DNA of 64,000 bases from an uncultured Collinsella sp. (lineage in GTDB: Bacteria > Actinomycetota > Coriobacteriia > Coriobacteriales > Coriobacteriaceae): contig UQJV01000001.1 of assembly GCA_900541475.1 (NCBI GenBank), positions 34,245 through 98,244 on the forward strand, given 5' to 3'. A program made the position numbers and the translations under genes. Shown piece after piece: positions 1-58,330 of the stretch. The first letter of the stretch is position 1. Each line of letters opens with the position of its first letter. The notes under the pieces were generated by a model. That model was given only the letters and a program-made list of their open reading frames with translations, did no database searches and was not told the DNA's origin.

Positions 1-166
1 TTTGGACCCGTGTTCAGCTGAACCGGGTGCGACCGAAACGCCCGTTTTGCTGCCAGACTGTCGGCGACAAAGCGGGCGGTCCAAGCCCGCGGAAGCAGCC
101 CTGGACGCGGCGCCGGACGGACCAGAGCCCGCCGCGCCCAGCCGGTGTGGACGATAAGGAGCAGAG

Positions 167-1354
167 ATGTTGATTCACTACGAGGCGAGTGTTGCGAGTG
201 CCAGGCACGAGATTCAGGGGTGTGGAAATCGGGAGCATTGCTGCGTGCAGGTGGTTGAGCCGCCCCGCGCGTTCGGTGCGGCGGGGGATGGTGGCCCGGA
301 CGGCGGAGGCTCGGCGACCGACGCGGCGCCTCGCCAGGCGATCGTTGCCGCTGTCGCGGGCGGTATGCCATCCATGATTTTGAGCGGCGAAGGTGCCCAC
401 CTTGCCAGCGAAGCTGCCGTCGATGCCGCGGCCGAGGCGTATCGTCGGGGCGAGCTCGTGCCGGGTGATGCCTCTGCCCTTAAGGGCGTGTTTGAGCGTG
501 CGCTTCGTGCGGTCGCAGACGTGGCCGTCGATCAGCCCGCTGCCGATATCACTTCGTTTGCCTGCACGCTATGCCTGGTAGTATGGGATGGCGTGCGCGT
601 TTGGTATGGCAATGCCGGTGATTCCGGTGCGGTTGCCGTGGACTTCTTGGGTGATCCGTTTGCCCTGACGCATATGCATTGCGGGCCGCTGTCGAGCCGG
701 CCGTTCCCGCTGCACGATTCCTATCACTGGGAGTTTGGCTATCGCACGAGCGCCGAAAGCGTGCTTGTGGCCACAGGTGGCATGCTTGGGCAGTTTGCCG
801 AGTGGGCGCCCGGCTCTTACGGTGCGCCGAAGGCGTATGACCGCGAGCTCATTGGCCTGCTCACGAATCGGAATATCGATGTGGACGATTTGCCGTTGAT
901 GAATGTCGCTGCAGCTAAATATCTGAACGAGTTTCCCGCGACCCGCGTGGACGGCGATAAGACGGCGGTGGCAATGATCAACAGCGAGAAGCCTTCGGTG
1001 ACAGATTTTATTTGCGCCACGGCGAAAGACGTGACGGCTGAGCGTCTTGCTGCGGCGGGCGCGTCCTTTGCGGACGAGGATGACGATCGAAAGGTCTTGC
1101 TGCCGTGGAACGACGAGCTGCGCATGCGCGCCGGCGATGTGGCGAATGACGTGGGCGGCGACTTCACTGTAGAGCTTGAGTATCAGCTCATGTGCGGCAT
1201 GTCGCTCGACCGCGCGTTTGAGCTGGCGGCTGCTGCTGCCCGCGAGCGCGCCGAGAGGTATCGCGTGTTCGAGGACTGTGTAGTCGACGGGCCCGAGGAT
1301 TTTTACGCGGCCATGCTGTTCGATGAGGAGGTGTTGTTTGACGAGATGGTCTAG
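167..1354 (+). CDS. PP2C-like (PPM-type) Ser/Thr phosphatase domain protein; N-terminus may lie upstream of window
   Basis: Motif VVWDGVRVWYGNAGDSGAVAV resembles the PPM metal-binding block (G-D-S-R-x-Y type); rest of protein low-complexity Ala/Asp-rich. Confidence 0.45.
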   Translation: MLIHYEASVASARHEIQGCGNREHCCVQVVEPPRAFGAAGDGGPDGGGSATDAAPRQAIVAAVAGGMPSMILSGEGAHLASEAAVDAAAEAYRRGELVPGDASALKGVFERALRAVADVAVDQPAADITSFACTLCLVVWDGVRVWYGNAGDSGAVAVDFLGDPFALTHMHCGPLSSRPFPLHDSYHWEFGYRTSAESVLVATGGMLGQFAEWAPGSYGAPKAYDRELIGLLTNRNIDVDDLPLMNVAAAKYLNEFPATRVDGDKTAVAMINSEKPSVTDFICATAKDVTAERLAAAGASFADEDDDRKVLLPWNDELRMRAGDVANDVGGDFTVELEYQLMCGMSLDRAFELAAAAARERAERYRVFEDCVVDGPEDFYAAMLFDEEVLFDEMV

Positions 1355-1489
1355 CGGCGTCGCGGGCCCTGGACTCTTCGCGCCGGGGGTGTTCAAGATA
1401 TGAAGGAATTATGCTCTACGAGATTTTCCTTGCCGTCTACCGAACTCCCGCGTAATATTCTTTCTTGCGCACATGAGGCGCCCAGACAT

Positions 1490-1566
1490 TGCGGGGTGGA
1501 GCAGTCTGGTAGCTCGCCGGGCTCATAACCCGGAGGTCGTAGGTTCAAATCCTGCCCCCGCGACCA
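1490..1566 (+). tRNA. initiator tRNA-fMet (anticodon CAT)
   Basis: Near-identical over its length to E. coli tRNA-fMet (CGCGGGGTGGAGCAG..GGGCTCATAACCC..GGTTCAAATCC..CCCCCGC.ACCA); three G-C pairs in anticodon stem, encoded CCA. Confidence 0.9.
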
Positions 1567-1653
1567 AGAACTTGCAGCTCGTCGGCCTAGCCGGCGAGCT
1601 TTTTTGTTATTGCGGATCATTGTTTTCGACCCAGTTCTCAACTTCCCAAACAA

Positions 1654-1711
1654 AATCTCGATCTGTAACATCTAGTCCCGATTTGGGCGTCTAGGTGTTA
1701 CAGATCGAGAT
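1654..1711. repeat. 57-58-bp palindromic element copy U1 (17-bp TIR ATCTCGATCTGTAACA / GTGTTACAGATCGAGAT, 24-nt core)
   Basis: Arms are reverse complements; core TCTAGTCCCGATTTGGGCGTCTAG related to cores of 6 other copies. Confidence 0.85.
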
Positions 1712-1856
1712 ATTTGGACAGGACGTTCTCTGTCATATCGAAGGGGGCGCTCCGTACGCCCGAACATGTACATGTCGGTAAGGTGGGAACTAGGGAACTT
1801 TACTAGGGAACTAGGAACCGCTGTTGGCTGAATCTCGCTCCGGGCGCAATTGCCCA

Positions 1857-1929
1857 TTTCCGGACATCCGCGGATAATGTCCGGAAATGGGTTGAAAATG
1901 TCCGGAAAAGGACGAAATGTCCGGAATAG
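1857..1929. promoter_or_regulatory. operator-like array A: TTCCGGACAT-N9-ATGTCCGGAA palindrome plus 2 further direct ATGTCCGGAA half-sites
   Basis: Seen directly; paralogous to arrays at 2235-2310 and 3746-3797. Confidence 0.6.
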
Positions 1930-2033
1930 TTGGGCTGTTCTACGCTTGGGTTGCCGTTATTCGGCTCTAAGTGTGGGCATGGGTTCCACTCCCATTCGGT
2001 GCTTTCGTTCCGATCATCAACTGCTCATATCAA

Positions 2034-2091
2034 AATCTTAATCTGTAACACCTAGATCTGATTTGGGCGGCCAACTGTTATAGATTAGGAC
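2034..2091. repeat. palindromic element copy U2
   Basis: AATCTTAATCTGTAACA-N24-CTGTTATAGATTAGGAC; core CCTAGATCTGATTTGGGCGGCCAA. Confidence 0.8.
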
Positions 2092-2234
2092 ATTCCGGCG
2101 GATAGCCCGCACTATGTCGAAGGAGTGTCCCGTACGTCTAATTTTGACGCATGCCAGACAGGTGTAAGGAACTCTGCTAGGGAGCTTGAGGGCTACTATT
2201 GGCCAGTTTCTATCTCGGACTCGGCGACTTCCTT

Positions 2235-2310
2235 TTCCGGACATTCGCGGGCGATGTCCGGAAAAGGGTTAAAAATGTCCGAATAACACTTAAAATGTCC
2301 CAAAAGAGCG
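2235..2310. promoter_or_regulatory. operator-like array B immediately upstream of the AlbA_2 gene (TTCCGGACAT-N9-ATGTCCGGAA plus degenerate half-sites)
   Basis: Seen directly; position suggests promoter/operator of CDS 2329-3723. Confidence 0.6.
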
Positions 2311-2328
2311 CGGCTGAAAGGCAAATGT

Positions 2329-3723
2329 ATGACTTCAGATGACATTGGAGAAATTCTCGCCAAAGGAGAGGGTGTTTCCATTGAATTTAAGCGATGCGGA
2401 AACCTTCCGGAAATCGATACGTTTGAAACGATTTGCTCTTTTGCGAATCGACAAGGAGGCAACATCCTGCTCGGGATTGTTGATGCTGAAAAATCCGACA
2501 CGGGGAAGCCTGAGGTCATTGGAATCGATTCTGCTCGTGTTGTCGAAATAGAGCGCAACATAGCGAATCGCTTGAATGATCCCAACTTCTTTAATGCTCC
2601 GCCTTCTATCGAGCTTGAGAGGGTTGAATATGAGGATAGGTTGGTTTTGCGTATCTGGGTGGTCGTCGGCGCCATCGTTCATAAATTGAAGGGTGTGGCG
2701 TATGACAGAATCGCCGATACGGATCGGAAAGTGACAACTGACACTCAGCTTGCGGCAATGTATATCCGTAAGCAGGATTACTATACCGAGCAGAGAGTCT
2801 ATCCCTATCTTGAGCTGGGGGACTTGCGTCTTGATTTGCTCGAACGGGTTAGGAGGATGGCGACAGCGAGACGTGCTAATCATCCATGGTCAGAGATGAA
2901 CGATGAAGATCTACTCCGAAGCGCAAATCTATATCTCAAAGACTACGAGACGGGTGTTGAGGGCTACACGTTTGCAGCCGCCCTTTTGCTTGGCAAAGAC
3001 AATGTGATTTCAAGTATCGCTCCGTCTTACAAAACTGATGCATACGTCCAGCGCGATGATGTGGACCGCTATGACGATCGTATTGTCGTGAAGACTAATC
3101 TTATCGAGGCGTACGATATTCTTCTGGAGTTCGCTCAGAAGCATCTGCCTGACAAGTTCTTTCTTGAGGGGACGCAATCGATTAGCCTGAGGGACGTCAT
3201 TTCGCGTGAGCTCATCGCTAACACGCTTATCCATCGCGAATACGCTAATCCTTACCCAGCAAAAATGGTTATCGATGCCGAGGGCATCCATACTGAGAAC
3301 GCGAGCCGCCCGCGATTCATCGGTGAGTTGTCGCCAAGCCATTTTAACCCGCTGCCTAAAAATCCCATCATTGCTGAGTTCTTTAGCAATATCGGTAGGG
3401 CAGAATCGTTGGGAAGTGGTACGAGAAATATGTTCAAGTACTCGTGGGCGTATGGCGGCGGTCAACCTGAGCTCGTTGAGGGCGATGTGTTTGATGCGCG
3501 TGTCCCCGTAGCGTCGAGTCTGGAGACGATTCAGAAGCTCGATGTCGATTGGGTCATTGAACGCATGCTGGAATCTTATGGGTACGTAACGGTAGCGGCG
3601 GTGGCGAATATCGCGAACGTTACCGAGAGGACGGTGCGAAGGCATATCTCCGATATGGTCGACGCCGGGGAGCTTCTGGGGGTCGGAGAGACGCGTGCAA
3701 GAAAGTTTGTCAGGGTGAAGTAA
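2329..3723 (+). CDS. AlbA_2 (Schlafen-like divergent AAA) + HATPase_c_4 + C-terminal wHTH protein ('RecG-like putative transcriptional regulator' family)
   Basis: N-term E.KR...E....ICSFANRQGGNILLGIVD matches AlbA_2 core; ISRELIANTLIHREY matches HATPase_c_4; C-terminal HTH-like VAAVANIANVTERTVRRHISDMVDAGEL. Confidence 0.75.
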   Translation: MTSDDIGEILAKGEGVSIEFKRCGNLPEIDTFETICSFANRQGGNILLGIVDAEKSDTGKPEVIGIDSARVVEIERNIANRLNDPNFFNAPPSIELERVEYEDRLVLRIWVVVGAIVHKLKGVAYDRIADTDRKVTTDTQLAAMYIRKQDYYTEQRVYPYLELGDLRLDLLERVRRMATARRANHPWSEMNDEDLLRSANLYLKDYETGVEGYTFAAALLLGKDNVISSIAPSYKTDAYVQRDDVDRYDDRIVVKTNLIEAYDILLEFAQKHLPDKFFLEGTQSISLRDVISRELIANTLIHREYANPYPAKMVIDAEGIHTENASRPRFIGELSPSHFNPLPKNPIIAEFFSNIGRAESLGSGTRNMFKYSWAYGGGQPELVEGDVFDARVPVASSLETIQKLDVDWVIERMLESYGYVTVAAVANIANVTERTVRRHISDMVDAGELLGVGETRARKFVRVK

Positions 3724-3745
3724 GGGAAGGACATGACGCCTCTCT

Positions 3746-3797
3746 TTCCGGACATTCGTGGACAATGTCCGTAATTAGGTCGAAATGTCCGGAATAG
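3746..3797. promoter_or_regulatory. operator-like array C downstream of AlbA_2 gene (TTCCGGACAT-N9-ATGTCCGTAA + GAAATGTCCGGAATAG)
   Basis: Seen directly. Confidence 0.55.
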
Positions 3798-3903
3798 CGG
3801 GGACGAGCTACATTTTGGTTGCCGAGATGCGGCCGTCCGCGCGGAAATGGTGTCACGACCCCGCCCTGTGTCTCTCGGCACTGTTCTTAACCTTTCAAAC
3901 TAG

Positions 3904-4122
3904 CATCTCGATCTGTAACATCTGGGGCCCATTTTGTCGAGTAACTGTTACAGATTTAGATCTTTCGGCAGGCTAGATTGGTTTGTCTCGATCTGTAACA
4001 GGTAGGGGTCAAAAGTGGGCCTAGCTGTTACAGATCTAGATTGTTGAGGATGGGTCGAGAGGAATGTCTCGATCTGTAACAGTAAGACCCGGTTTTGCCG
4101 AGTAACTGTTACAGATTGAGAC
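3904..4122. repeat. array of three palindromic element copies U3-U5 (3904-3962, 3985-4041, 4066-4122) separated by 22-23 bp; U4 core inverted relative to U3/U5
   Basis: Each: GTCTCGATCTGTAACA-N24-CTGTTACAGAT(C/T)(G/T)AGA(C/T); cores share GGCCC..TTTTG.CGAG.TAA. Confidence 0.85.
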
Positions 4123-4279
4123 AAACCGACGGCCGGGCTCATTCCATCCGACGCCCTGCCTCGCTCCATCCACCTGCCGCCACTTGATATTCGCCGATTT
4201 TCGTTGTGCTGTCGTGCTCCCATGCCATATCCTCTAGACAACTACGCGGCATCATCGCCGCCGCGCCTACAAGAGAGGA

Positions 4280-6316
4280 ATGTCCATGACCGCACCTGCA
4301 TCCAAGCTGCTCCAGCCCATTACAGTTGGCCCCCTTGAGCTCAAGAACCGCATTATGTTCCCGCCGCTGACCACCGGCTACGAGGAGCGTGACGGCTCCA
4401 TTGGCGAGCGCAGCCTGGCTTTTTACGAGCGCCTGGCCCGTGGCGGCGTGAGCTACATCGTCATCGGCGACGTCGCTCCCGTCATGACCGCAAGCCCCAC
4501 GCCCAAGCTGGCAACCGACGCCCAGATCCCCACGTTTAAGGCGCTGGCCGATGCCGTTCACAAGCACGGTGCCAAGGTCGCGCTGCAGCTGTTCCACCCC
4601 GAGTACGACGTGCCCGGTGTCGGCCGCATGGTCATGGGATCCATGGCTGCCGCCAAGGCCGCGCAGGAGGCCAAGGCCGCCGGCGACGAGGAGACCTTTG
4701 CCGCCAAGATGGCCGAGTCCAACGAGATTCGCAAGCAGGCATACGCCAAGCTGCACCACGATATGCAGCACTTTGTGAACGAGGCCAGCGTGGAGCAGCT
4801 CACCCAGATCAAGGAAGCCATCGCTGCCTCGGCCGCTCGCGCGCAGCAGGCCGGCATCGACGCCATCGAGGTCCACGGCGACCGCCTGGTGGGTTCGCTG
4901 TGCTCGGCCATCCTCAACCAGCGCACCGACGAGTACGGTGGCTCGTTCGAGAATCGCGTTCGCTACGCGCTCGAGGTCGTCGCTGCCATTAAGGAAGCCG
5001 CGCCGCAGCTGATGGTGGAGTACAAGCTCCCCGTGATCATGGAGAACCCCGACGGCACGCCGCGCGGCAAGGGCGGCCTGCAGCCCGACGAGGCCTGCGA
5101 GTTCGCCAAGCTGCTCGAGGGCGCCGGCATCGACATGATCCAGGTCGCGCAGGCAAACCATACCGGCAACATGGGCGATACCATTCCGCCCATGGGCGCC
5201 ATGCCCTACAACTGGACGCTGCCGGTGGCCGAGCGCGTTAAGGCCCTGGTCTCCGTGCCGGTGGCCACCGTCGGCCGTGTTGTCTCGGTCGAGGCCGGCG
5301 AAAAGATTCTGGAAGACGGCGCGGCCGACATCATCGCCTATGGCCGCTCGCTCATGTGCGACCCCGACATTGCGCTGAAGGCCGCCACGGGTGAGCCCAT
5401 CCGCGAGTGCCTCAACTGCAACAAGGGCTGCGTCGACGCGATTCAAAACCGCAAGTACATCTCGTGCGTGCTCAATGCCGAGAACGGCGACGAGGCGACC
5501 ATCGCCATTAAGCCGGGCGAGGGCGACAAGAAGATCGCCGTGGTGGGCGGCGGCATCGCCGGCCTGGAGGCCGCGCGCGTGGCGGCCAAGCGCGGCTACG
5601 ACGTGACCGTCTACGAGGCGAGCGATCACTTGGGCGGCCAGATTGTGCTGGCGGCCGCGCCTCCGCGCAAGGACGAGATCATGCGCTCCGTCGAGTACTA
5701 CGAGAAGATTCTGCCCGGCCTGGGCGTGAAGGTTGAGCTCAACCATGCCGCTACCGCTGAGGACCTCAACGCCGCCGACGCCGCGATTGTGGCCGTGGGC
5801 GCGCACGACGTGGTCATCCCTGTTCCGGGTGCCGACTCGGACAAGGTCGTCTCGAGCTGGGACGTGCTGGCCGGCAAGGTGGAGCTTACGGGCCGCGTCG
5901 CCGTCATTGGCGGTGGCCTGGTGGGCACCGAGACTGCCGAGTACCTGCTGCAGCACGGCTGCGAGGTGGCGATCGTGGAGATGCTCGACAAGATTGCCGC
6001 GGGCGAGTCCGAGACCATTCTGCCGCTGATCATGGGCGACTTTGCCGAGCACAACGTGGAGCAGCACGTGAAGACCCGCCTGACCGCCATTACCGACGAG
6101 GGCGTGGAGGCCATTCGCACCACTGAGGACGGCGCCGAGGAGCCGGTGAAAATCGCCTGCGATTACGTGGTGATGGCCGTGGGCTCCAAGGCCAACGCGT
6201 TTGACCTGGACGGCGTGACGGTGCCCATGACCTGCGTGGGCGACTGCTCGGGCGAGCGCACCGCCGATATCGCGAGCGCCATCCGCACGGCATATCACGC
6301 GGCCAACGAGCTGTAG
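4280..6316 (+). CDS. NADH:flavin oxidoreductase (OYE-like TIM barrel with 4Fe-4S Cys cluster) fused to FAD/NAD(P)-binding oxidoreductase domain (2,4-dienoyl-CoA reductase / enoate reductase family)
   Basis: 678 aa; CLNCNKGC cysteine motif after the OYE-like barrel; C-terminal KKIAVVGGGIAGLEAARVAAKRGYDVTVYE Rossmann motif and second VAVIGGGLVGTE motif. Confidence 0.8.
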   Translation: MSMTAPASKLLQPITVGPLELKNRIMFPPLTTGYEERDGSIGERSLAFYERLARGGVSYIVIGDVAPVMTASPTPKLATDAQIPTFKALADAVHKHGAKVALQLFHPEYDVPGVGRMVMGSMAAAKAAQEAKAAGDEETFAAKMAESNEIRKQAYAKLHHDMQHFVNEASVEQLTQIKEAIAASAARAQQAGIDAIEVHGDRLVGSLCSAILNQRTDEYGGSFENRVRYALEVVAAIKEAAPQLMVEYKLPVIMENPDGTPRGKGGLQPDEACEFAKLLEGAGIDMIQVAQANHTGNMGDTIPPMGAMPYNWTLPVAERVKALVSVPVATVGRVVSVEAGEKILEDGAADIIAYGRSLMCDPDIALKAATGEPIRECLNCNKGCVDAIQNRKYISCVLNAENGDEATIAIKPGEGDKKIAVVGGGIAGLEAARVAAKRGYDVTVYEASDHLGGQIVLAAAPPRKDEIMRSVEYYEKILPGLGVKVELNHAATAEDLNAADAAIVAVGAHDVVIPVPGADSDKVVSSWDVLAGKVELTGRVAVIGGGLVGTETAEYLLQHGCEVAIVEMLDKIAAGESETILPLIMGDFAEHNVEQHVKTRLTAITDEGVEAIRTTEDGAEEPVKIACDYVVMAVGSKANAFDLDGVTVPMTCVGDCSGERTADIASAIRTAYHAANEL

Positions 6317-6756
6317 TTAACTTCGCGGCCAGGCGGGGCGGTAGCACGGATCCGCCTCGCCCGACTGCGTCCCATCGGGTGTCAACCGGGGCGGGGTCTG
6401 CAAGCGCAGCAGGTCCCGCCCTTCTTGTTTTGCTCCAGTGGATGGCAATGCGCGCTAATCATGAGGAGCGAGGACGTCTACTGCCTTGCAGACCGCTCAA
6501 AATTATTAGGGGAGGGGTTAATAATTATATCCTCTATACCAAAGGACATAAAGAGATGCCAATTTTGTTGGCAAGCGAATGACGATTGGCTGCGAGCTAG
6601 CTACCAGCGTAAATAATCGATAAAGAAATGTCGTAAATTGATGCCAAATGCCCAGATGCCACCGTTGCAATTTTCAGTTAACTGTTACGCGCGAACAGCA
6701 AAATGCTACTATCTAACAAGCACGTAAGAAAGCAGATTAACGGTTAAGGCTAAGAA

Positions 6757-7161
6757 GTGGCAGGTATGTCGGAAGCAACAAGGACTCGCACGCATGCGCC
6801 CGAGGTTAGGCAGCGCGCCGTCGAGATCCTCCAAGAGGGGGTCGGTCACCGCGCCCTCGCCGCAAAGCTTGGCATTCCCCAGGCCACGGCTCGTCAGTGG
6901 GCCCGCGCATATGCCGTGGGCGGTGCCGACGCCGTGCTCAATGCGGGCGCTTGCCATCACATCTATTCGTACGACGTAAAACTCGCCGTGGTTAAGGACC
7001 GTCTGAAAAACGGCCTGACGGTTCGCGAGACCATGATCAAGTATGGGATTCCCAGCGAGTCTTCAGTCAAGGCCTGGTGCCGCCAGTATCGCGAGAGCGG
7101 TGAGTCCGCGCTGGTCGATAAGCCGCGCGGACGCAAGCCGCGCGTTAAAAAGGCGGAATAG
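6757..7161 (+). CDS. lone IS3-family OrfA-like HTH transposase fragment (no OrfB partner) in AT-rich island
   Basis: 134 aa with two HTH segments and C-terminal KPRGRKPRVKK typical of IS3 OrfA; preceded by roughly 330 bp of much lower GC content (not computed). Confidence 0.6.
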   Translation: MAGMSEATRTRTHAPEVRQRAVEILQEGVGHRALAAKLGIPQATARQWARAYAVGGADAVLNAGACHHIYSYDVKLAVVKDRLKNGLTVRETMIKYGIPSESSVKAWCRQYRESGESALVDKPRGRKPRVKKAE

Positions 7162-7171
7162 CGAACGGGAT

Positions 7172-7200
7172 GGTGCGCCCACAGGGGCGCATTTTTCTTG
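7172..7200 (+). terminator. hairpin GCGCCCACAGGGGCGC + ATTTTTCTT
   Basis: Seen in sequence. Confidence 0.5.
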
Positions 7201-7447
7201 CCGCGCCAACTTTTCGGACTGCCGCGAGCCTATCGGGACATCTTCCAACGTGGCCAATAAACCGCGCACAGTGGCCCGCGCGCCTGCCGCTGCGGTAAGG
7301 GAGCGTCACCCCTCTACTCCAATGCGGACAGACTCCTTACCCCGTACGCCTAAAACTCCCCAGTTGACCGAAAACCTGCCGCCGCCACTCCTCAATTGAG
7401 CTATAACGTTAAACAATTGCAGCGTTTTTGCATGGGGGAGTGATGGT

Positions 7448-10330
7448 ATGACGCTACTGTATTTCCTTACCCTGTTTCCGCTGGTACCGGCGCTGGGTAT
7501 GCTGTTCGCGCGCGGTGACCGCGCCCGCGATGCGGTGGGGCTCATAGGTTCCGGCATCATTATGGCGGTGACAGTTGTAGTCGCCGTCATGTTTTTTGGC
7601 ACGGGCCCGCAGAGCTTTGAGGTTGCCCCCGGCACCTCGCATGTGCTCTCGATCATCAGCTCCGCCATCGATGTCATCCTGTGCGCTGTCATCCTGTACA
7701 ACGCGTATAAATATAGGAACGTGCTTACCACAGTGCTCGGCATAGTCCAGCTGGTGGGGTCGCTCGCCTTTGCGACCATGACGCTGCCCGCGGCCGAAGC
7801 CGTCACGGCGACGCCGCTCTACCTGGACTACATGAGCGTGATCATGGTCCTCGCCGTCGGCATCGTCGGCAGCCTAATCTGCGTGTATGCCCTGGGCTAC
7901 ATGAAGGACTTCCAGGCCCACGACGAGCACGAGGCCGCGCTGCGCGGGCAGACCGCGCCCGACCGTCGCCCGCAGTTCCTGGCGCTCATGTTCCTGTTCC
8001 TCTCGGCCATGTTCGTCATCGTGACGAGCGACAACCTTGAGTGGCTGTTCTGCGGCTGGGAGATCACCACCGTGTGCTCGTTCCTCATGATTGGCTACAC
8101 GCGCACGCCCGAGGCCATCAAGAACGCCTTCACCCAGATCATCCTCAACATGCTGGGCGGTATCGCGTTTTTGGCCGGACTCATGTACCTGCACGTTAAC
8201 GGCATGCCGTTGACCATCTCGGGCATGATCGAGCTTTCCGGCGCCGGAACCGCGCAATCCGCGCTGCTGGTGATGCCGGTCATCCTGCTGTCGCTCGCCG
8301 CGCTCACCAAGGCCGCACAGATGCCGTTCCACACTTGGCTGCTCGGTGCCATGGTTGCCCCCACGCCCACGAGCGCCCTGCTGCATTCGTCCACCATGGT
8401 CAAAGCCGGCGTGTTCCTAATGGTCAAGCTGAGCCCGCTCTATGCCATCTATCCCGTGACCGGCTTTATGGTCACGAGTGTGGGTGCCATCACGTTTTTG
8501 CTCGCTGCCCTCATGGCCATCTCGCAGAGCAACGCCAAACGCGTGCTCGCGTACTCCACCATTTCCAACTTGGGCCTCATCAGTGCCTGCTTGGGTGTCG
8601 GCGCGCCCGAGGCCGTGTGGGCCGCCATCTTCCTGATCCTGTTCCACACGGTGGCCAAATCGCTGCTGTTCCTGTGCGTGGGCACCGCCGAGCATCATAT
8701 CGGCAGCCGCAATATCGAGGACATGGACGGTATGTTCAGCCGCATGCCGCACCTGACGCGTCTGATGATGCTGGGCATCATGGGCATGTTTGTGGCGCCG
8801 TTTGGCATGCTCGTGTCCAAGTGGGGTGCCCTGGTGGCGTTTGCGCAGACCGGCAACGTGCTCATGATCATGGTGCTTGCCTTTGGCTCGGCCGCGACGT
8901 TTTACTTCTGGGGCAAGTGGCTTGCCAAACTTTCGGGCGTCGACCCCACGGCTCAAAACGTTGAGGTTAATGTCCATAAGACCGAATGGATGGCGCTCAA
9001 CACCATCGCCGCGCTGCTGATTCTGTGCTGCGTGGCGTTCCCGGTTATCTCGAGCGGTCTGGTGTCGCCTTACTTGGCCATGGTGTTTGGCCGCGTGCCG
9101 TACGTTATTGGCAAGGACGCCATGTATCTGATGGTGGTTATCGTGGCGTTTATCGCCGTGGTGCTGCTGACGTCGTTCCGCGTGAGCAATAAGCCGCACG
9201 TCAACGTGTACCTTTCGGGCGTTGGAACCGAGAACTACCGTCATTTCCGCGGCTCGATGGGACACGAGGTAAAGGCCGAAAAGCGCAATTGGTACTCGGA
9301 GGACGCCCTTGGCGAGAAGCGTATTGGCCCCGCGGGTAGCGTCGTGTGCTGCAGCATTATCTTGTTTGCGCTGCTGTGCTGCGCGTGGATTGGGCCCGAG
9401 CGGCTTGCCATGAGTGCGCCCTCGGTGCTGCGCGGCAAGTATTTCGAAGGCTCGGGCGTCGTGGGCATTTTTATTGGTACCGTGGCGTTTGCCTTGCTGG
9501 CGCCGCTTGTGGGCGGTTTGATTGACGGCCTTGACCGCAAGCTGTCCGCTCGCATGCAGGGTCGCGTGGGGCCGCGTCTGCTGCAGCCCTTCTACGACGT
9601 TGCCAAGCTGCTGCGTAAAGCCCCTGCCAGCGTAAACACCATGGACGATACCTACATGGCGTGCGCGCTCATCTTTACCGCCGTGGGCGGCGGCATCTTT
9701 GTGTCGGGCTCCAACACGCTGCTGTGCGCCTTTATGGTGACGCTCGCCGCGATCTTTGTGGTGCTGGCGTCCGCCTCGACGCAAAGCCCGTTTGCCCAGG
9801 TCGGCGCCGATCGTGAGTTGCTGCAGGTTATGAGTTACGAGCCCGCCGTTCTGCTGATGAGCGTGGGCTTGTACCTTGCCACCGATAGCTTCGATTCCAT
9901 CGCCGTGACGGGGCAGTCGGCCCCCATCATCGTGTACAGCGCGCCCATTTTCCTCGCGCTGCTCGCGGTGCTCACCATCAAGCTGCGCAAGTCGCCGTTT
10001 GACCTTTCGTACTCACATCACGCGCATCAGGAGATCGTCCAGGGCGTCGCCACCGAGATGAGCGGCGGCACGCTGGCCAAGATGACCCTTATGCACTGGT
10101 GCGAGACCGTGCTGTTTTTGATGTGGGTGGGCATGTTCTTTGTCTGGGACAACCCGGTGAGCTGGGTCGTAGCCCTGGTCGTGATGGCTGCGACGTACTT
10201 TGTCGAGGTGCTGATTGACAACACCTTCGCGCGCAGCACCTGGCGCAGCTGCTTTAAGCTCGGCTGGGGCGTGGCGCTGGTATTTGGCCTGCTCAACCTT
10301 ATGCCCATCCTCGTTGACGTGTTTATTTAG
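7448..10330 (+). CDS. Ech-type hydrogenase membrane subunits EchA-like (NuoL/HyfB antiporter-like, about first 640 aa) fused in frame to EchB-like (NuoH/HycD-like, last ~300 aa)
   Basis: WLLGAMVAPTPTSALLHSSTMVKAGVFLMVKLSPL (NuoL/M/N signature); C-terminal GLIDGLDRKLSARMQGRVGPRLLQPFYDVAKLLRK (NuoH signature); single uninterrupted 960-aa ORF. Confidence 0.8.
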   Translation: MTLLYFLTLFPLVPALGMLFARGDRARDAVGLIGSGIIMAVTVVVAVMFFGTGPQSFEVAPGTSHVLSIISSAIDVILCAVILYNAYKYRNVLTTVLGIVQLVGSLAFATMTLPAAEAVTATPLYLDYMSVIMVLAVGIVGSLICVYALGYMKDFQAHDEHEAALRGQTAPDRRPQFLALMFLFLSAMFVIVTSDNLEWLFCGWEITTVCSFLMIGYTRTPEAIKNAFTQIILNMLGGIAFLAGLMYLHVNGMPLTISGMIELSGAGTAQSALLVMPVILLSLAALTKAAQMPFHTWLLGAMVAPTPTSALLHSSTMVKAGVFLMVKLSPLYAIYPVTGFMVTSVGAITFLLAALMAISQSNAKRVLAYSTISNLGLISACLGVGAPEAVWAAIFLILFHTVAKSLLFLCVGTAEHHIGSRNIEDMDGMFSRMPHLTRLMMLGIMGMFVAPFGMLVSKWGALVAFAQTGNVLMIMVLAFGSAATFYFWGKWLAKLSGVDPTAQNVEVNVHKTEWMALNTIAALLILCCVAFPVISSGLVSPYLAMVFGRVPYVIGKDAMYLMVVIVAFIAVVLLTSFRVSNKPHVNVYLSGVGTENYRHFRGSMGHEVKAEKRNWYSEDALGEKRIGPAGSVVCCSIILFALLCCAWIGPERLAMSAPSVLRGKYFEGSGVVGIFIGTVAFALLAPLVGGLIDGLDRKLSARMQGRVGPRLLQPFYDVAKLLRKAPASVNTMDDTYMACALIFTAVGGGIFVSGSNTLLCAFMVTLAAIFVVLASASTQSPFAQVGADRELLQVMSYEPAVLLMSVGLYLATDSFDSIAVTGQSAPIIVYSAPIFLALLAVLTIKLRKSPFDLSYSHHAHQEIVQGVATEMSGGTLAKMTLMHWCETVLFLMWVGMFFVWDNPVSWVVALVVMAATYFVEVLIDNTFARSTWRSCFKLGWGVALVFGLLNLMPILVDVFI

Positions 10331-11684: not shown

Positions 11685-12773
11685 ATGGCGCATCGCTCCG
11701 TTATTCCGTTTGGCCCGCAGCACCCGGTGCTGCCCGAGCCGCTTCATCTGGACCTGGTGATCGAGGACGACCGTGTCATCGAGGCAATTCCGCAGATCGG
11801 CTTTGTGCACCGCGGACTCGAGAAGCTCACCGAAAAGCGTGATATGCATCAGTTTGGCTACATCGCCGAGCGCATCTGCGGTATCTGCGCCGTGGGCCAT
11901 AGCTACGGCTATGCCAGCGCCTGCGAGCGCATGTTCGGCATCGAGGTGCCCGGTCGCGTGCAGTATATCCGCACCATTTTGCACGAGCTTTCGCGCATTC
12001 ACTCGCACCTGCTGTGGTTGGGCCTGCTCGCCGATGCCTTTGGCTTCGAGGCGCTGTTCTATCGGTCGTGGACGCTGCGAGAGCAGATTCTCAATATCTT
12101 TGAGAGTACGTGCGGCGGTCGCGTGATTTTGTCAATCAACGAGATCGGCGGTCTTAAGCACGACATTGAGGACTCCGAGCTAGCGGGCATTGTCCAGACG
12201 CTCGACGCCATGCGTCCCGACTACGAGGCCCTGGTGCATACGTTTTTGGACGACAATAGCTGCGGCGAGCGCCTGCACGGCGTGGGCGTGATCAGCAAGA
12301 AGGACGCGCTGGAGCTTTCGATGGTCGGCCCGTTCGGCCGCGCCTCGGGCGTGGATTACGACGTGCGCATGTTTGGCGACGGTGCCTATGCGGACCTGGC
12401 CGCGTTTGAGCCCATCGTTGCTACCGATGGCGATTGCTACGCCCGCTGCCAGGTGCGTTGCGCCGAGGTCACGCAGGCCATGGACATCATCAAGGAGCTT
12501 GTGGGCAAGATTCCGCACGACGGTATCGGCGGGCGCACCAAGCTCACGCCGGCCGACGGCGCGCGCGGCGAGGTTGTGATTGAGCAGCCGCGCGGCGAGG
12601 CGTACTACTATGTGCGCGGCAACGGCACCAAGAACCTGGACCGTTTTCGCGTGCGCACGCCGACGTCGCAGAACCTGGCGGGTCTGACACATGCGCTGCA
12701 GGGTGTGCTCCTTGCCAACGTGCCCATGATTATCCTGACCATCGACCCCTGCATTAGCTGCACGGAAAGGTAG
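11685..12773 (+). CDS. [NiFe] hydrogenase large subunit, NuoD-like (EchE-like, 362 aa)
   Basis: N-terminal RICGICAVGHS and C-terminal DPCISCTER Ni-Fe ligand motifs. Confidence 0.9.
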   Translation: MAHRSVIPFGPQHPVLPEPLHLDLVIEDDRVIEAIPQIGFVHRGLEKLTEKRDMHQFGYIAERICGICAVGHSYGYASACERMFGIEVPGRVQYIRTILHELSRIHSHLLWLGLLADAFGFEALFYRSWTLREQILNIFESTCGGRVILSINEIGGLKHDIEDSELAGIVQTLDAMRPDYEALVHTFLDDNSCGERLHGVGVISKKDALELSMVGPFGRASGVDYDVRMFGDGAYADLAAFEPIVATDGDCYARCQVRCAEVTQAMDIIKELVGKIPHDGIGGRTKLTPADGARGEVVIEQPRGEAYYYVRGNGTKNLDRFRVRTPTSQNLAGLTHALQGVLLANVPMIILTIDPCISCTER

Positions 12774-57533: not shown

Positions 57534-58184
57534 GTGAACATGCATATCTACTCTGTCTCTGATCCCGAGTTCAAGTCCTATGGCCGCGTGTGGGATGACG
57601 TTCCGTCCAGCCTGACCGCTCCACTCGTCGAGGCACTCGCGGCTACGCCCATCCCCGAGGGCAGCAAATACGTGGCCTCCGCGCCCGAGCTCGAGCAGGT
57701 TGAGGGCGCCGACACGCTCGGCCTGCTCATGTACGGCGGCCGCCCCTTCCAGCTCGGCTGGTGCAACGGCCACAACACACGACTCAACTGTCTGGAGTAT
57801 CACCGCGCGAGTGAGTTTAACCTGGGCGCCCGCGACTTTATCCTGCTCGTGGCGCATCGCTGGGAGATCGAGGACGGAAAGCTCGATACCGCTCAGGTCA
57901 AGGCGTTCCGCGTGCCGGCGGGCAAGGTTGTCGAGGTCTTCAACACCACGCTCCACTACACGCCGTGCATGGTCGATGAAAGCGGCTTCCAGGTGATGGT
58001 GGCGCTGCCCGCCGGTACCAACGGTCCGCGCCCCGAGGCCGCAACCGACATGCCTGCCGCCGGTGACAGCTACTGCTACTGGAAGGCCGACAAGTGGGTC
58101 CTCTGCCATGCTGACAGCCCCAAGGCAGCCGAAGGCGGCTACGTGGGCCTCATCGGAAAGAACCTCGACATCGCCTGCGACTAG
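57534..58184 (+). CDS. hypothetical protein (possibly DUF4867-like)
   Basis: ORF only. Confidence 0.4.
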   Translation: MNMHIYSVSDPEFKSYGRVWDDVPSSLTAPLVEALAATPIPEGSKYVASAPELEQVEGADTLGLLMYGGRPFQLGWCNGHNTRLNCLEYHRASEFNLGARDFILLVAHRWEIEDGKLDTAQVKAFRVPAGKVVEVFNTTLHYTPCMVDESGFQVMVALPAGTNGPRPEAATDMPAAGDSYCYWKADKWVLCHADSPKAAEGGYVGLIGKNLDIACD

Positions 58185-58192
58185 AATCTTCT

Positions 58193-58330
58193 GTCTCAAT
58201 CTGTAACACCTAGCGGGCTAAATCGCCTCTACCTGTTATAGATCGAGACAAACCGTAGAGGGCCGCCCGAACAATCTCAATCTGTAACACCGGGCCCGGT
58301 TTTGGCGGCCTAACTGTTACAGATCGAGAC
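58193..58330. repeat. two palindromic element copies U6 (58193-58249, inverted core) and U7 (58275-58330)
   Basis: GTCTCAATCTGTAACA-N24-CTGTTATAGATCGAGAC and TCTCAATCTGTAACA-N24-CTGTTACAGATCGAGAC. Confidence 0.85.

Follow-up and report, generated by a model that had tools for sequence, protein, structure and literature searches.

A 64,000-nt stretch of contig UQJV01000001.1 from an uncultured Collinsella sp. (assembly GCA_900541475.1; the whole stretch is called the window here) carries, beside an initiator-type tRNA-Met gene, a single gene for a prokaryotic Schlafen (pSlfn) that lies between two arrays of short repeated half-sites. The core unit of this locus is an operator array, a gene with Schlafen, GHKL-like and wHTH (winged helix-turn-helix) domains, and a second operator array. 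We regard it as reasonably probable that this is a defence-type gene that represses itself, and that the bracketing arrays also make it cassette-like. The protein itself adds one more case to a kind that is known and was recently characterised. We did not find the arrays that bracket the gene and travel with it, the second array without a promoter, the solo arrays and the cassette-like recombination described in the literature available to us. An earlier note, made from the letters of the window alone, had listed a tRNA, palindromes, arrays, modules and a gene at this locus and had called the layout a non-standard one for an operon; all of these elements were found at about the positions it gave, and the layout is indeed unlike that of a standard operon.

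Two operator arrays around a Schlafen gene

Half-sites of the type ATGTCCGGAA, counted over the whole window with at most one mismatch, numbered 15 against 3.1 expected, and 10 of the 15 fell in three arrays (1853-1927, 2231-2305 and 3742-3797). The arrays proved to be wider than these 10-mers: some 20 bp further left stands an extra half-site, and what looked like a '9-bp spacer' holds a central GGACA-A-TGTCC palindrome. In their shared design, GGACAT-N4-GGACA-A-TGTCC precedes one or two direct ATGTCC sites spaced by about 21 bp, and one or two extra GGACAT sites are frequent to the left of it. Array 1 has no gene, array 2 lies upstream of the Schlafen gene and array 3 downstream of it (Table 1).

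The locus was compared with fetched loci, either relatives or array-bearing ones, which are given L-numbers. The nearest genome loci to the gene were those of Collinsella isolates and metagenome-assembled genomes (94-98% protein identity). All lineages of the subfamily with obtainable flanking DNA were included (n=9, 65-100% protein identity), namely the window with other Collinsella at 94-98%, L030 at 85%, L056/L074 at 74%, L041 at 73%, L061 at 70%, L044 at 69%, L066 at 68% and L046 at 65%. An array was present both upstream and downstream of the gene, in direct orientation, in 9/9 lineages and in unrelated contexts. The bases flanking the half-sites varied by lineage (CCGG, TTAG, GCGG) and were the same on both sides of one gene. 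DNA homology between the window and L030 covered window positions 2239-3795, from the first to the last half-site, with nothing shared outside; homology between L041 (4910-6487) and L074 (2260-3835) likewise ran from array to array.

The two arrays differ in one respect. A TAnAAT box (TAAAAT, TACAAT, TATAAT or TAGAAT) lies over the last half-site of the upstream array in 9/9 lineages, whereas 0/9 downstream arrays have one (they read CGAAAT, TGTAAT, CGAGAT, TTTGAT and so on). For L044, the two arrays were identical at 93/94 positions, and the sole difference was the second base (A) of the -10 box. The predicted promoter in the window is TTAAAA-16-TAAAAT (2269-2296), with its -10 box overlapping the last half-site of array 2. 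The box in all nine lineages indicates that the upstream array is a promoter under operators, which is the classic layout of negative autoregulation; at the level of the sequence, operators do lie over the regulator's own promoter. The downstream array was also considered as a promoter of the next gene, and this was rejected, since a TAnAAT box is missing from all nine and the genes that follow are either unrelated or lie on the other strand. Small open reading frames (ORFs) starting at a half-site ATG, such as 3785-3976, were rejected as well, their likeness between modules following only from DNA similarity.

Among the Collinsella arrays the half-sites were invariant and the spacers variable. 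Array 2 was more conserved than synonymous sites (98% identity to L025 at a proportion of synonymous differences, pS, of 0.115), while leader 2, which precedes it, evolved no more slowly than synonymous sites. Both arrays could still be aligned between the window and L030 at a synonymous divergence (dS) of ~2.2. A scan of metagenome contigs with a pattern spanning three half-sites returned 49 array loci, and a fourth half-site, which the pattern did not demand, was in phase in 36 of 44 distinct arrays (chance ~0.2% each). The arrays without it were five unrelated environmental matches, two one-base variants and one recombinant. The same pattern had no match in viral contigs. This degree of conservation suggests that the arrays are functional protein-binding sites kept by selection.

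Bracketing repeats are not a trait of the whole AlbA_2/HATPase_c_4/wHTH family, a possibility that was ruled out by paralogs and distant homologs. The bracketing-repeat score of the window gene was z=11.9, and no such repeats were found at three paralogs of the same island, at a second AlbA_2 gene of L046 or at three Bifidobacterium homologs (z<2.5).

The gene product is a stand-alone pSlfn of the HisKinase-HTH (Schlafen-GHKL-HTH) class. Its N-terminal part matched AlbA_2 (PF04326, SLFN_AlbA_2) in Pfam with E=1.3e-11 (45.5 bits, where the cutoff is 25.3) and carries the motif E14-GVSI-E19-F-K21, of which E14, E19 and K21 were invariant in 50 aligned homologs. Ex4(E/D)xK is the catalytic motif of pSlfns, and the window motif stands at the position of the catalytic E15/D20 of RorSlfn5 (PMC13056530). 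N298 and G362-S-G364, also invariant in the 50-homolog alignment, can be taken for the N-box and a glycine box in a GHKL fold, and several homologs carry PF13749 (HATPase_c_4). Pfam HTH families gave only weak, sub-threshold matches at the C-terminus. An AlphaFold2 model built on the 50 homologs had a mean pLDDT of 84.6 and showed three helices and a beta-hairpin at residues 406-462, the make-up of a wHTH, with the recognition helix TERTVRRH. Using Foldseek, the full chain matched 3LMM (DIP2311) with E=1.5e-19, and this full-length match supports all three domains (AlbA_2, GHKL-like and wHTH); the N-domain matched the nuclease domains of SLFN14, SLFN5, SLFN11 and SLFN13 (E 5e-5 to 9e-4) and the C-terminus matched wHTH domains of the MarR family and of AspA/TubR. 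The domain order read in the earlier note stood for AlbA_2 and for the overall fold, but its HATPase_c_4 part stayed below the Pfam cutoff and the HTH matches were weak. With dN/dS (nonsynonymous to synonymous rates) of 0.04-0.06 against three Collinsella orthologs and L030, the gene is, by this measure, under strong purifying selection.

Databases name the protein only loosely. NCBI labels it 'RNA-binding domain-containing protein', NCBIfam gave no match, and a PDB sequence search returned only a marginal match to Schlafen 8. PADLOC gave weak matches only, to Argonaute-associated models (E=2e-5), because the SLFN/GHKL region is common to the Schlafen-associated prokaryotic Argonautes (SLFN-pAgo). 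The nearest plasmid and phage relatives of the protein had <=43% identity. Several lineages have homologs adjoining SIR2_2, Abi_2, AbiEi/AbiEii, integrase, HNH or endonuclease genes. An apparent alternative allele of 469 aa (L019, L020) was rejected as the same gene with its start called 15 nt upstream.

The antiphage tRNase activity of pSlfns was shown only in 2025-2026, and HisKinase and HisKinase-HTH members make up about half of them. Slfn-HisKinase-HTH is the second commonest of 55 pSlfn architectures, with 19.2% of 5,930 proteins, and has been catalogued, not dissected (PMC13056530). The earlier note's suggestion of a defence locus gains from the fact that the family includes antiphage effectors established by experiment (Perez Taboada et al., Nat Microbiol 2026, PMC13056530). 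The pair of SLFN and GHKL domains has been named the 'Schlatpase' supradomain, and ATP binding by this pair drives formation of the active tetramer of SLFN-pAgo (bioRxiv 10.64898/2026.05.29.728809). The window protein resembles the HisKinase-HTH pSlfns, the Schlatpases and 3LMM in having an N-terminal AlbA_2 domain with Ex4ExK, a GHKL-like middle and a C-terminal HTH, and its gene family sits, as other pSlfns do, in variable, defence-type neighbourhoods. It differs from the characterised pSlfns (Ig-like and DUF262 fusions, SLFN-pAgo and the CRISPR-associated Cash), which have other sensor domains, in its divergent GHKL domain and in the conserved binding-site arrays on both sides of the gene. 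From its domains and motifs, the protein is probably an ATP-regulated tRNA or RNA nuclease in defence, whose activity would be under the control of ATP and a trigger.

The protein's own C-terminal wHTH most likely binds the GGACA/TGTCC half-sites, as judged from three sequence classes. The array-bearing clade combines a helix RT(V/A)RRH and a wing TRxR(K/R) with GGACA/TGTCC arrays upstream. The Gordonibacter homolog (51% identity, L102) has the helix KTAKRH, the wing TRDRK and three ATGTCCCGAA repeats at 11-bp spacing, together with a TATAAT overlapping a fourth TGTCC site. The P0071 clade (55%, L099) has the helix RTAQRY, lacks such a wing and has a different inverted repeat, TAGACCAAAA...TTTTGGTCTA. 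The shift of operator type with the recognition helix, seen over these three classes only, supports the wHTH as the domain that reads the arrays. The pSlfn literature available to us describes neither a DNA target of the HTH nor a cis-architecture for the HisKinase-HTH class.

More distant homologs from Phycisphaerae and Bacteroidia (L033, L036 and L038) have 12-bp tandem repeats just beyond the tblastn match, where the gene ends or past its 3' end, namely CTACCGCGCAAG x4, GATACTTTAAAT x6 and AAATGTCGTGAT x5.

Recombination between arrays and arrays without a gene

The arrays recombine. Module 1 (1654-2033) aligned to the left flank and the right flank of the gene joined within the array, with the common blocks TCGAAGG..CCGTACG, CTAGGGA and TTGG(G)TTGCCG. 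Its four half-sites are perfect. With 25-30% divergence from module 2 it is old, and other Collinsella species have it too. From this alignment, module 1 is most likely a solo array with duplicated local flanks, produced by duplication and then inter-array recombination; the tandem duplication perhaps occurred through the palindromic repeats (PALs) described below. The earlier note had called it an empty module, and it is indeed gene-less and homologous to the flanks of module 2, but a solo array with duplicated flanks is the better description.

A natural recombinant was found in L094. There, leader 1 together with array 1's left portion continues, from a crossover within the central palindrome, into array 3's right portion and tail 3, with the diagnostic CCGC spacer of array 1 kept and tail 3 97% identical. 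This locus lacks ~1.9 kb, gene included, and is a natural deletion between array 1 and array 3. The solo array of L083 matched the occupied site of L074 in its right flank (677 bp, 92%) and its immediate left flank. Five loci (L050, L053, L079, L082 and L098) retain only the downstream array and a C-terminal remnant of the gene. Within one gene, the upstream and downstream arrays reached identities of 0.99, 0.91 and 0.80, compared with arrays of different lineages, which averaged 0.59 and did not exceed 0.74, and this likeness, spacers included, points to gene conversion or repeated exchange; several lineages had an identity of only ~60-70%. The cassette-like array proposed in the earlier note therefore holds in that arrays act as boundaries and that an inter-array deletion occurs in L094, but the unit is array-gene-array and not a module delimited by palindromes.

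Other details of these loci were recorded. The truncated gene of L053 keeps only an out-of-frame remnant of the wHTH coding sequence, and beside it is a (GA)n microsatellite; the array of this locus is at 12581, ~400 bp downstream of the microsatellite. A fragment of ~480 bp, which looks like the 3' end of a sugar-dehydrogenase gene by its sequence, recurs in L041 (4385-4877), L074 (1108-1591 and 3967-4435) and L083 (2552-3062), placing it immediately upstream of the cassette, on both sides of the cassette and downstream of the solo array, respectively.

Three kinds of solo array were distinguished. Type A comprises Collinsella leader-array-tail modules, single or double, beside the reductase gene that also adjoins the window locus, in strains with other cargo. 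Type B (12 loci: L071 at ~5044, L073 at ~8247 and L096 at ~3828 on the array-oriented strand, and nine alike) is a conserved array of five sites where an ORF resembling a reverse transcriptase (RT) has its 3' end, followed by a 144-aa ORF and a gene for single-stranded DNA-binding protein (SSB). The RT-like ORF matched RVT_1 weakly (E=0.003) and has a YMDD motif, and a ParA-type ATPase gene and a flotillin-like gene are nearby; no Schlafen gene was present in these loci, and the context had no match in phage and plasmid collections. The gene content of type B is suggestive of a mobile element. In type C (3 loci), the array has an unannotated 550-aa ORF on one side and, on the other, an ORF whose N-terminal sequence suggests a GroEL-type chaperonin.

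A model for the bracketing arrays and its alternatives

We propose that the C-terminal wHTH binds the half-sites and that, as the upstream array spans the -35 and -10 boxes, the protein would repress its own, potentially toxic gene. The downstream array, with the same sites and no -10 box, would cooperate through an oligomeric protein, either by looping or as a second anchor. As direct repeats, the arrays also recombine, and this would homogenise them, delete the gene to leave a solo array, and make the unit portable among Coriobacteriia genomes.

Looping may be the role of the downstream array, by analogy with lambda CI at OL/OR and with the lac, gal and deo systems. As in those systems, the promoter of the regulator is covered by multiple phased sites, more such sites follow at a distance of 1.5 kb, and an oligomeric regulator is to be expected; both arrays enclose the regulator gene, which is also the order in the lambda immunity region. 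Unlike those systems, the window arrays are direct and not mirrored, the second array has no promoter and no visible gene to control, and nuclease and ATPase-like domains form part of the regulator, with binding and looping here putative.

Several observations weigh against the autorepression model. Its looping step has an analogy as its basis. The homologs at 51-55% identity (L102, L099) have upstream operators only and no downstream array, and the wing residues did not correlate cleanly with the bases flanking the half-sites in the nine lineages. In about 30 of the 49 metagenome loci with arrays, a gene of the clade is missing within several kb, which indicates that arrays can persist without an adjacent gene, and the changes of side of the ~480-bp fragment are not explained by simple inter-array recombination. 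As for the protein, the HATPase_c_4 match (PF13749, E=0.001, 19.5 bits) is under the 26-bit Pfam cutoff. HisKinase-type pSlfns gave no detectable defence in E. coli against the phage panel used, and HisKinase fusions lie outside the two systems that protected E. coli (PMC13056530).

The first alternative, which we consider unlikely although the most probable of the rivals, is that array-gene-array is a site-specific mobile cassette, autonomous or host-assisted, with att-like (attachment-site-like) arrays and a circular intermediate of the gene and one array that enters and leaves solo arrays; catalysis would come from the encoded protein or a host recombinase. The gene does lie between direct repeats that are near identical in L044 and L061, relocated copies are homologous from array to array, and solo arrays are common, with one set in a likely mobile element. 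The L094 crossover falls in the central palindrome, and L083 and L074 form an empty/occupied pair. However, the protein (Schlafen, GHKL and wHTH) has no recombinase fold, and the arrays are unlike the cores of tyrosine or serine recombinases, as the 9-bp spacer holds a half-site and the palindrome spacer is 1 nt. The systematic difference in the -10 box between upstream and downstream arrays fits regulatory selection better than site-specific regeneration, the divergence between the two arrays in several lineages speaks against such regeneration, and RecA-type recombination of 60-95-bp repeats accounts for L094 equally.

The comparison with integron attC sites and with Xer pdif/IMEX modules bears on the same question. 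A single promoter-proximal gene bounded by repeated imperfect-palindrome sites, the existence of gene-less sites, the occurrence of the unit in varied contexts with boundaries at the sites and the natural inter-site recombinants are all shared features. Unlike integrons, no integron integrase is near (1-8000), and there is no R- or L-box of attC and no GTTRRRY core. Unlike pdif, the sites lack the dif-like 11-6/8-11 geometry. In contrast to both, the window sites double as promoter and operator, and the only cargo seen between two arrays is this Schlafen clade.

Next in order, and likewise improbable, is the reading in which the arrays are a sensed target: the wHTH would meet arrays on invading elements, or be titrated off its own arrays, and the Schlafen nuclease would be switched on. 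The 12 type B loci, with arrays beside SSB, ParA-type ATPase and RT-like genes and no Schlafen near, are what such a reading calls for. The domains fused to pSlfns have been proposed as sensors (PMC13056530), and DNA recognition frees SLFN-pAgo from an inactive filament to form the active tetramer (bioRxiv 10.64898/2026.05.29.728809). Against this, the mobility of type B is unproven, with no phage or plasmid match and the RVT_1 match being weak; DNA activation of the nuclease is purely hypothetical, and type B arrays may equally have been left behind by a cassette since lost, or serve as operators of another protein encoded in the element.

Both the mobile-cassette and the sensed-target readings could hold alongside autoregulation. 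We also give a low probability, of the same order as that of the sensed target, to a combination in which the nuclease is parked inactive on the arrays bracketing its own gene and is freed by matching arrays on an invader (type B), the arrays serving as insertion and excision sites too. If this were true, operator, sensor target and mobility site would be one DNA element.

It is quite improbable that the arrays are bound by an unrelated host factor, such as a nucleoid protein or a global regulator of Coriobacteriia, with the encoded wHTH binding something else. The solo arrays with conserved half-sites in gene-less loci would fit this, but the arrays move with the gene across contexts and genera, the flanking bases follow the gene lineage on both sides, the operator type changes with the wHTH recognition helix, and no arrays were seen around the paralogs of the same island. 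The least probable of the alternatives is that the island is a decayed tRNA-targeting integrative element whose modules are functionless remnants of att or arm sites, as the tRNA-adjacent position, the low GC, the partial tRNA-Met copies that bracket other cargo in other strains and the variable island content might suggest, since no integrase ORF (1-8000) and no repeat of the tRNA 3' end was found in the window, the unit occurs far from any tRNA elsewhere, and the gene and its arrays are under purifying selection.

Under the autorepression model, GGACAT-N4-GGACA-A-TGTCC with phased half-sites becomes a concrete candidate for the DNA that one clade's HTH targets, and it would be a first clue to the sequences recognised by the DNA-binding domain in the very common HisKinase-HTH Schlafens. 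Natural variants are supplied by the solo arrays, the inter-array deletion and the truncated genes, and a candidate foreign target is supplied as well. The locus further suggests that a regulatory repeat can make a single gene cassette-like without a dedicated recombinase.

The tRNA-Met island and its palindromic repeats

The initiator character of the tRNA-Met was read from its sequence, in which three G-C pairs close the anticodon stem (GGG/CCC) and U1-G72 is a weak pair. This gene is the left edge of a strain-variable island, and its predicted intrinsic terminator shields the island from tRNA transcription. The GC content of ~1600-4140 was 0.45-0.53, compared with 0.60-0.68 in both flanks, and besides its palindromes the island holds two non-coding modules, homologous to one another, and a single gene. 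The sequence of leader 1 was not conserved outside Collinsella.

Table 1. Positions of the tRNA, array, gene and palindrome features in the window.
Feature	Position	Strand	Basis and details
tRNA-Met (CAT), initiator-type	1490-1566	+	ARAGORN; Rfam tRNA, 63 bits
Intrinsic terminator of the tRNA gene	1576-1600	+	11-bp stem with 8 GC pairs, then TTTTTTGTT
PAL1, palindromic repeat	1654-1712	.	Arms TCTCGATCTGTAACA; REP/BIME-like (see text); RNA fold -38.5 kcal/mol
Leader 1, Collinsella-specific, non-coding, paralogous to leader 2	1713-1841	+	Module 1 versus left flank of the gene
Array 1, solo, gene-less	1842-1927	+	TTCCGGACAT, central GGATA-A-TGTCC, three direct ATGTCCGGAA spaced 19-21 bp; no -10 box (CGAAAT)
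Tail 1, paralogous to tail 3	1928-2033	+	Repeat family D3, 72% identity
PAL2, degenerate palindromic element	2034-2092	.	Repeat and fold analysis
Leader 2	2093-2216	+	Alignment; 81% and 58% identity to L025 and L026
Array 2, over the gene promoter	2217-2305	+	-35 TTAAAA 2269-2274; -10 TAAAAT 2291-2296
Gene, 464-aa prokaryotic Schlafen	2329-3723	+	Pfam, 50-homolog alignment, AlphaFold2 model, Foldseek, dN/dS
Array 3, promoter-less, begins 6 nt past the stop codon	3729-3797	+	GGACAT, TTCCGGACAT, central GGACA-A-TGTCC, one more ATGTCCGGAA
Tail 3	3798-3904	+	Repeat and alignment
Three-PAL cluster	3905-4123 (3905-3961; 3986-4042, loop inverted; 4067-4123)	.	80-81-bp period
Second PAL cluster, two copies	58194-58329	.	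81-bp period; directly 3' of the stop of gene 57534-58184

The stretch from tRNA-Met to the reductase gene was hypervariable across Collinsella strains. L062 (6874-8986) and L087 (678-2657) have a 499-aa canonical AlbA_2+HATPase_c_4+wHTH paralog between the tRNA and a partial tRNA copy; the full tRNA-Met with a PAL and part of leader 1 is on one side of this paralog, and the second, partial tRNA-Met copy begins at its stop codon. The island of L095 holds ~10 kb of cargo, including one 488-aa Schlafen paralog, those of L097, L064 and L077 hold an Abi_2 gene and a third Schlafen paralog, and an ORF6N gene is also among the cargo in other strains. The variable cargo and the partial tRNA copies in other strains indicate that tRNA-Met is an integration hot spot. 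At 4700-4754, L029 (Collinsella sp. AF33-16) has no more of tRNA-Met than its 3' half with the terminator, preceded by unrelated DNA, and this half tRNA looks like the att-type trace that an element left on integrating there. The foreign DNA before it contains a 261-aa ORF on the reverse strand. In support of the earlier note, the locus varies among the strains and species compared in palindrome number, module number and cargo; it is clearly not invariant, and its repeats are not found only here.

The earlier note had also proposed a remnant of an integrative element, with a direct repeat of the tRNA 3' end as the mark of an att site. No integrase ORF was found in window 1-8000 by the ORF list and Pfam, and the 3' 25-mer of the tRNA occurred once in the window at <=3 mismatches, with no att-type repeat. 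The proposal is not supported on either point here; att-like partial copies of the tRNA lie beside other cargo in other strains. The Schlafen cassette was found far from tRNAs in other genomes. An Rfam scan of 1300-4400 at a permissive threshold returned only the tRNA and chance miRNA-like matches on hairpins, and no known RNA element. By eye, a tRNA-like sequence is present on the opposite strand at 4404-4560 of the Gordonibacter locus L102, past the terminator hairpin of the gene; if this is true, the family adjoins a tRNA in a second genus.

The PALs are a separate family resembling the repetitive extragenic palindromes and bacterial interspersed mosaic elements (REP/BIME), which colonises intergenic DNA independently of the array-gene-array unit. 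The five elements in the island are 55-61 bp long, and the PAL arm motif occurred 13 times in the window against 0.5 expected. Seven PAL copies lie at two unrelated intergenic sites in the 64 kb, and the second cluster at 58.2 kb, which is upstream of a glycoside-hydrolase-like gene, shows that PALs are a dispersed repeat and not specific to the island. The fetched Collinsella loci contained 125 PAL copies, a sample biased to the tRNA-Met island because the loci were chosen that way; 54/57 neighbouring pairs were spaced 80-81 bp, and the hairpins folded at -17 to -38 kcal/mol. The number of PALs 3' of the gene ranged from 1 to 3 among strains with an identical protein, and metagenome contigs often end inside PALs. 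None was found in any non-Collinsella copy of the cassette examined, and PALs are thus not the module delimiters for which the earlier note had taken them.

Dispersed extragenic imperfect palindromes in clusters are the mark of REP/BIME, and PALs are of this form. Like the REP/BIME of Proteobacteria, they lie just after stop codons, form strong hairpins and occur in tandem clusters, some of them alternately oriented, in strain-variable number. Unlike these, PALs are longer (55-61 bp versus ~35 bp), keep their rigid period with unconserved linkers and reside in an actinobacterial host (Coriobacteriia). This undescribed REP/BIME-like repeat and the hypervariable tRNA-Met island are thereby documented for Collinsella, an abundant human gut genus.

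Further along the window, a 134-aa ORF (6757-7161, +) matched solely the HTH domains of IS3-type transposases (HTH_28, HTH_Tnp_1). It is preceded by a low-GC patch (6451-6750, with a dip to 0.43) and is kept in all strains (131-134 aa) between the reductase gene and a hydrogenase/antiporter-like operon. This ORF may be a domesticated regulator or a remnant of an insertion sequence.

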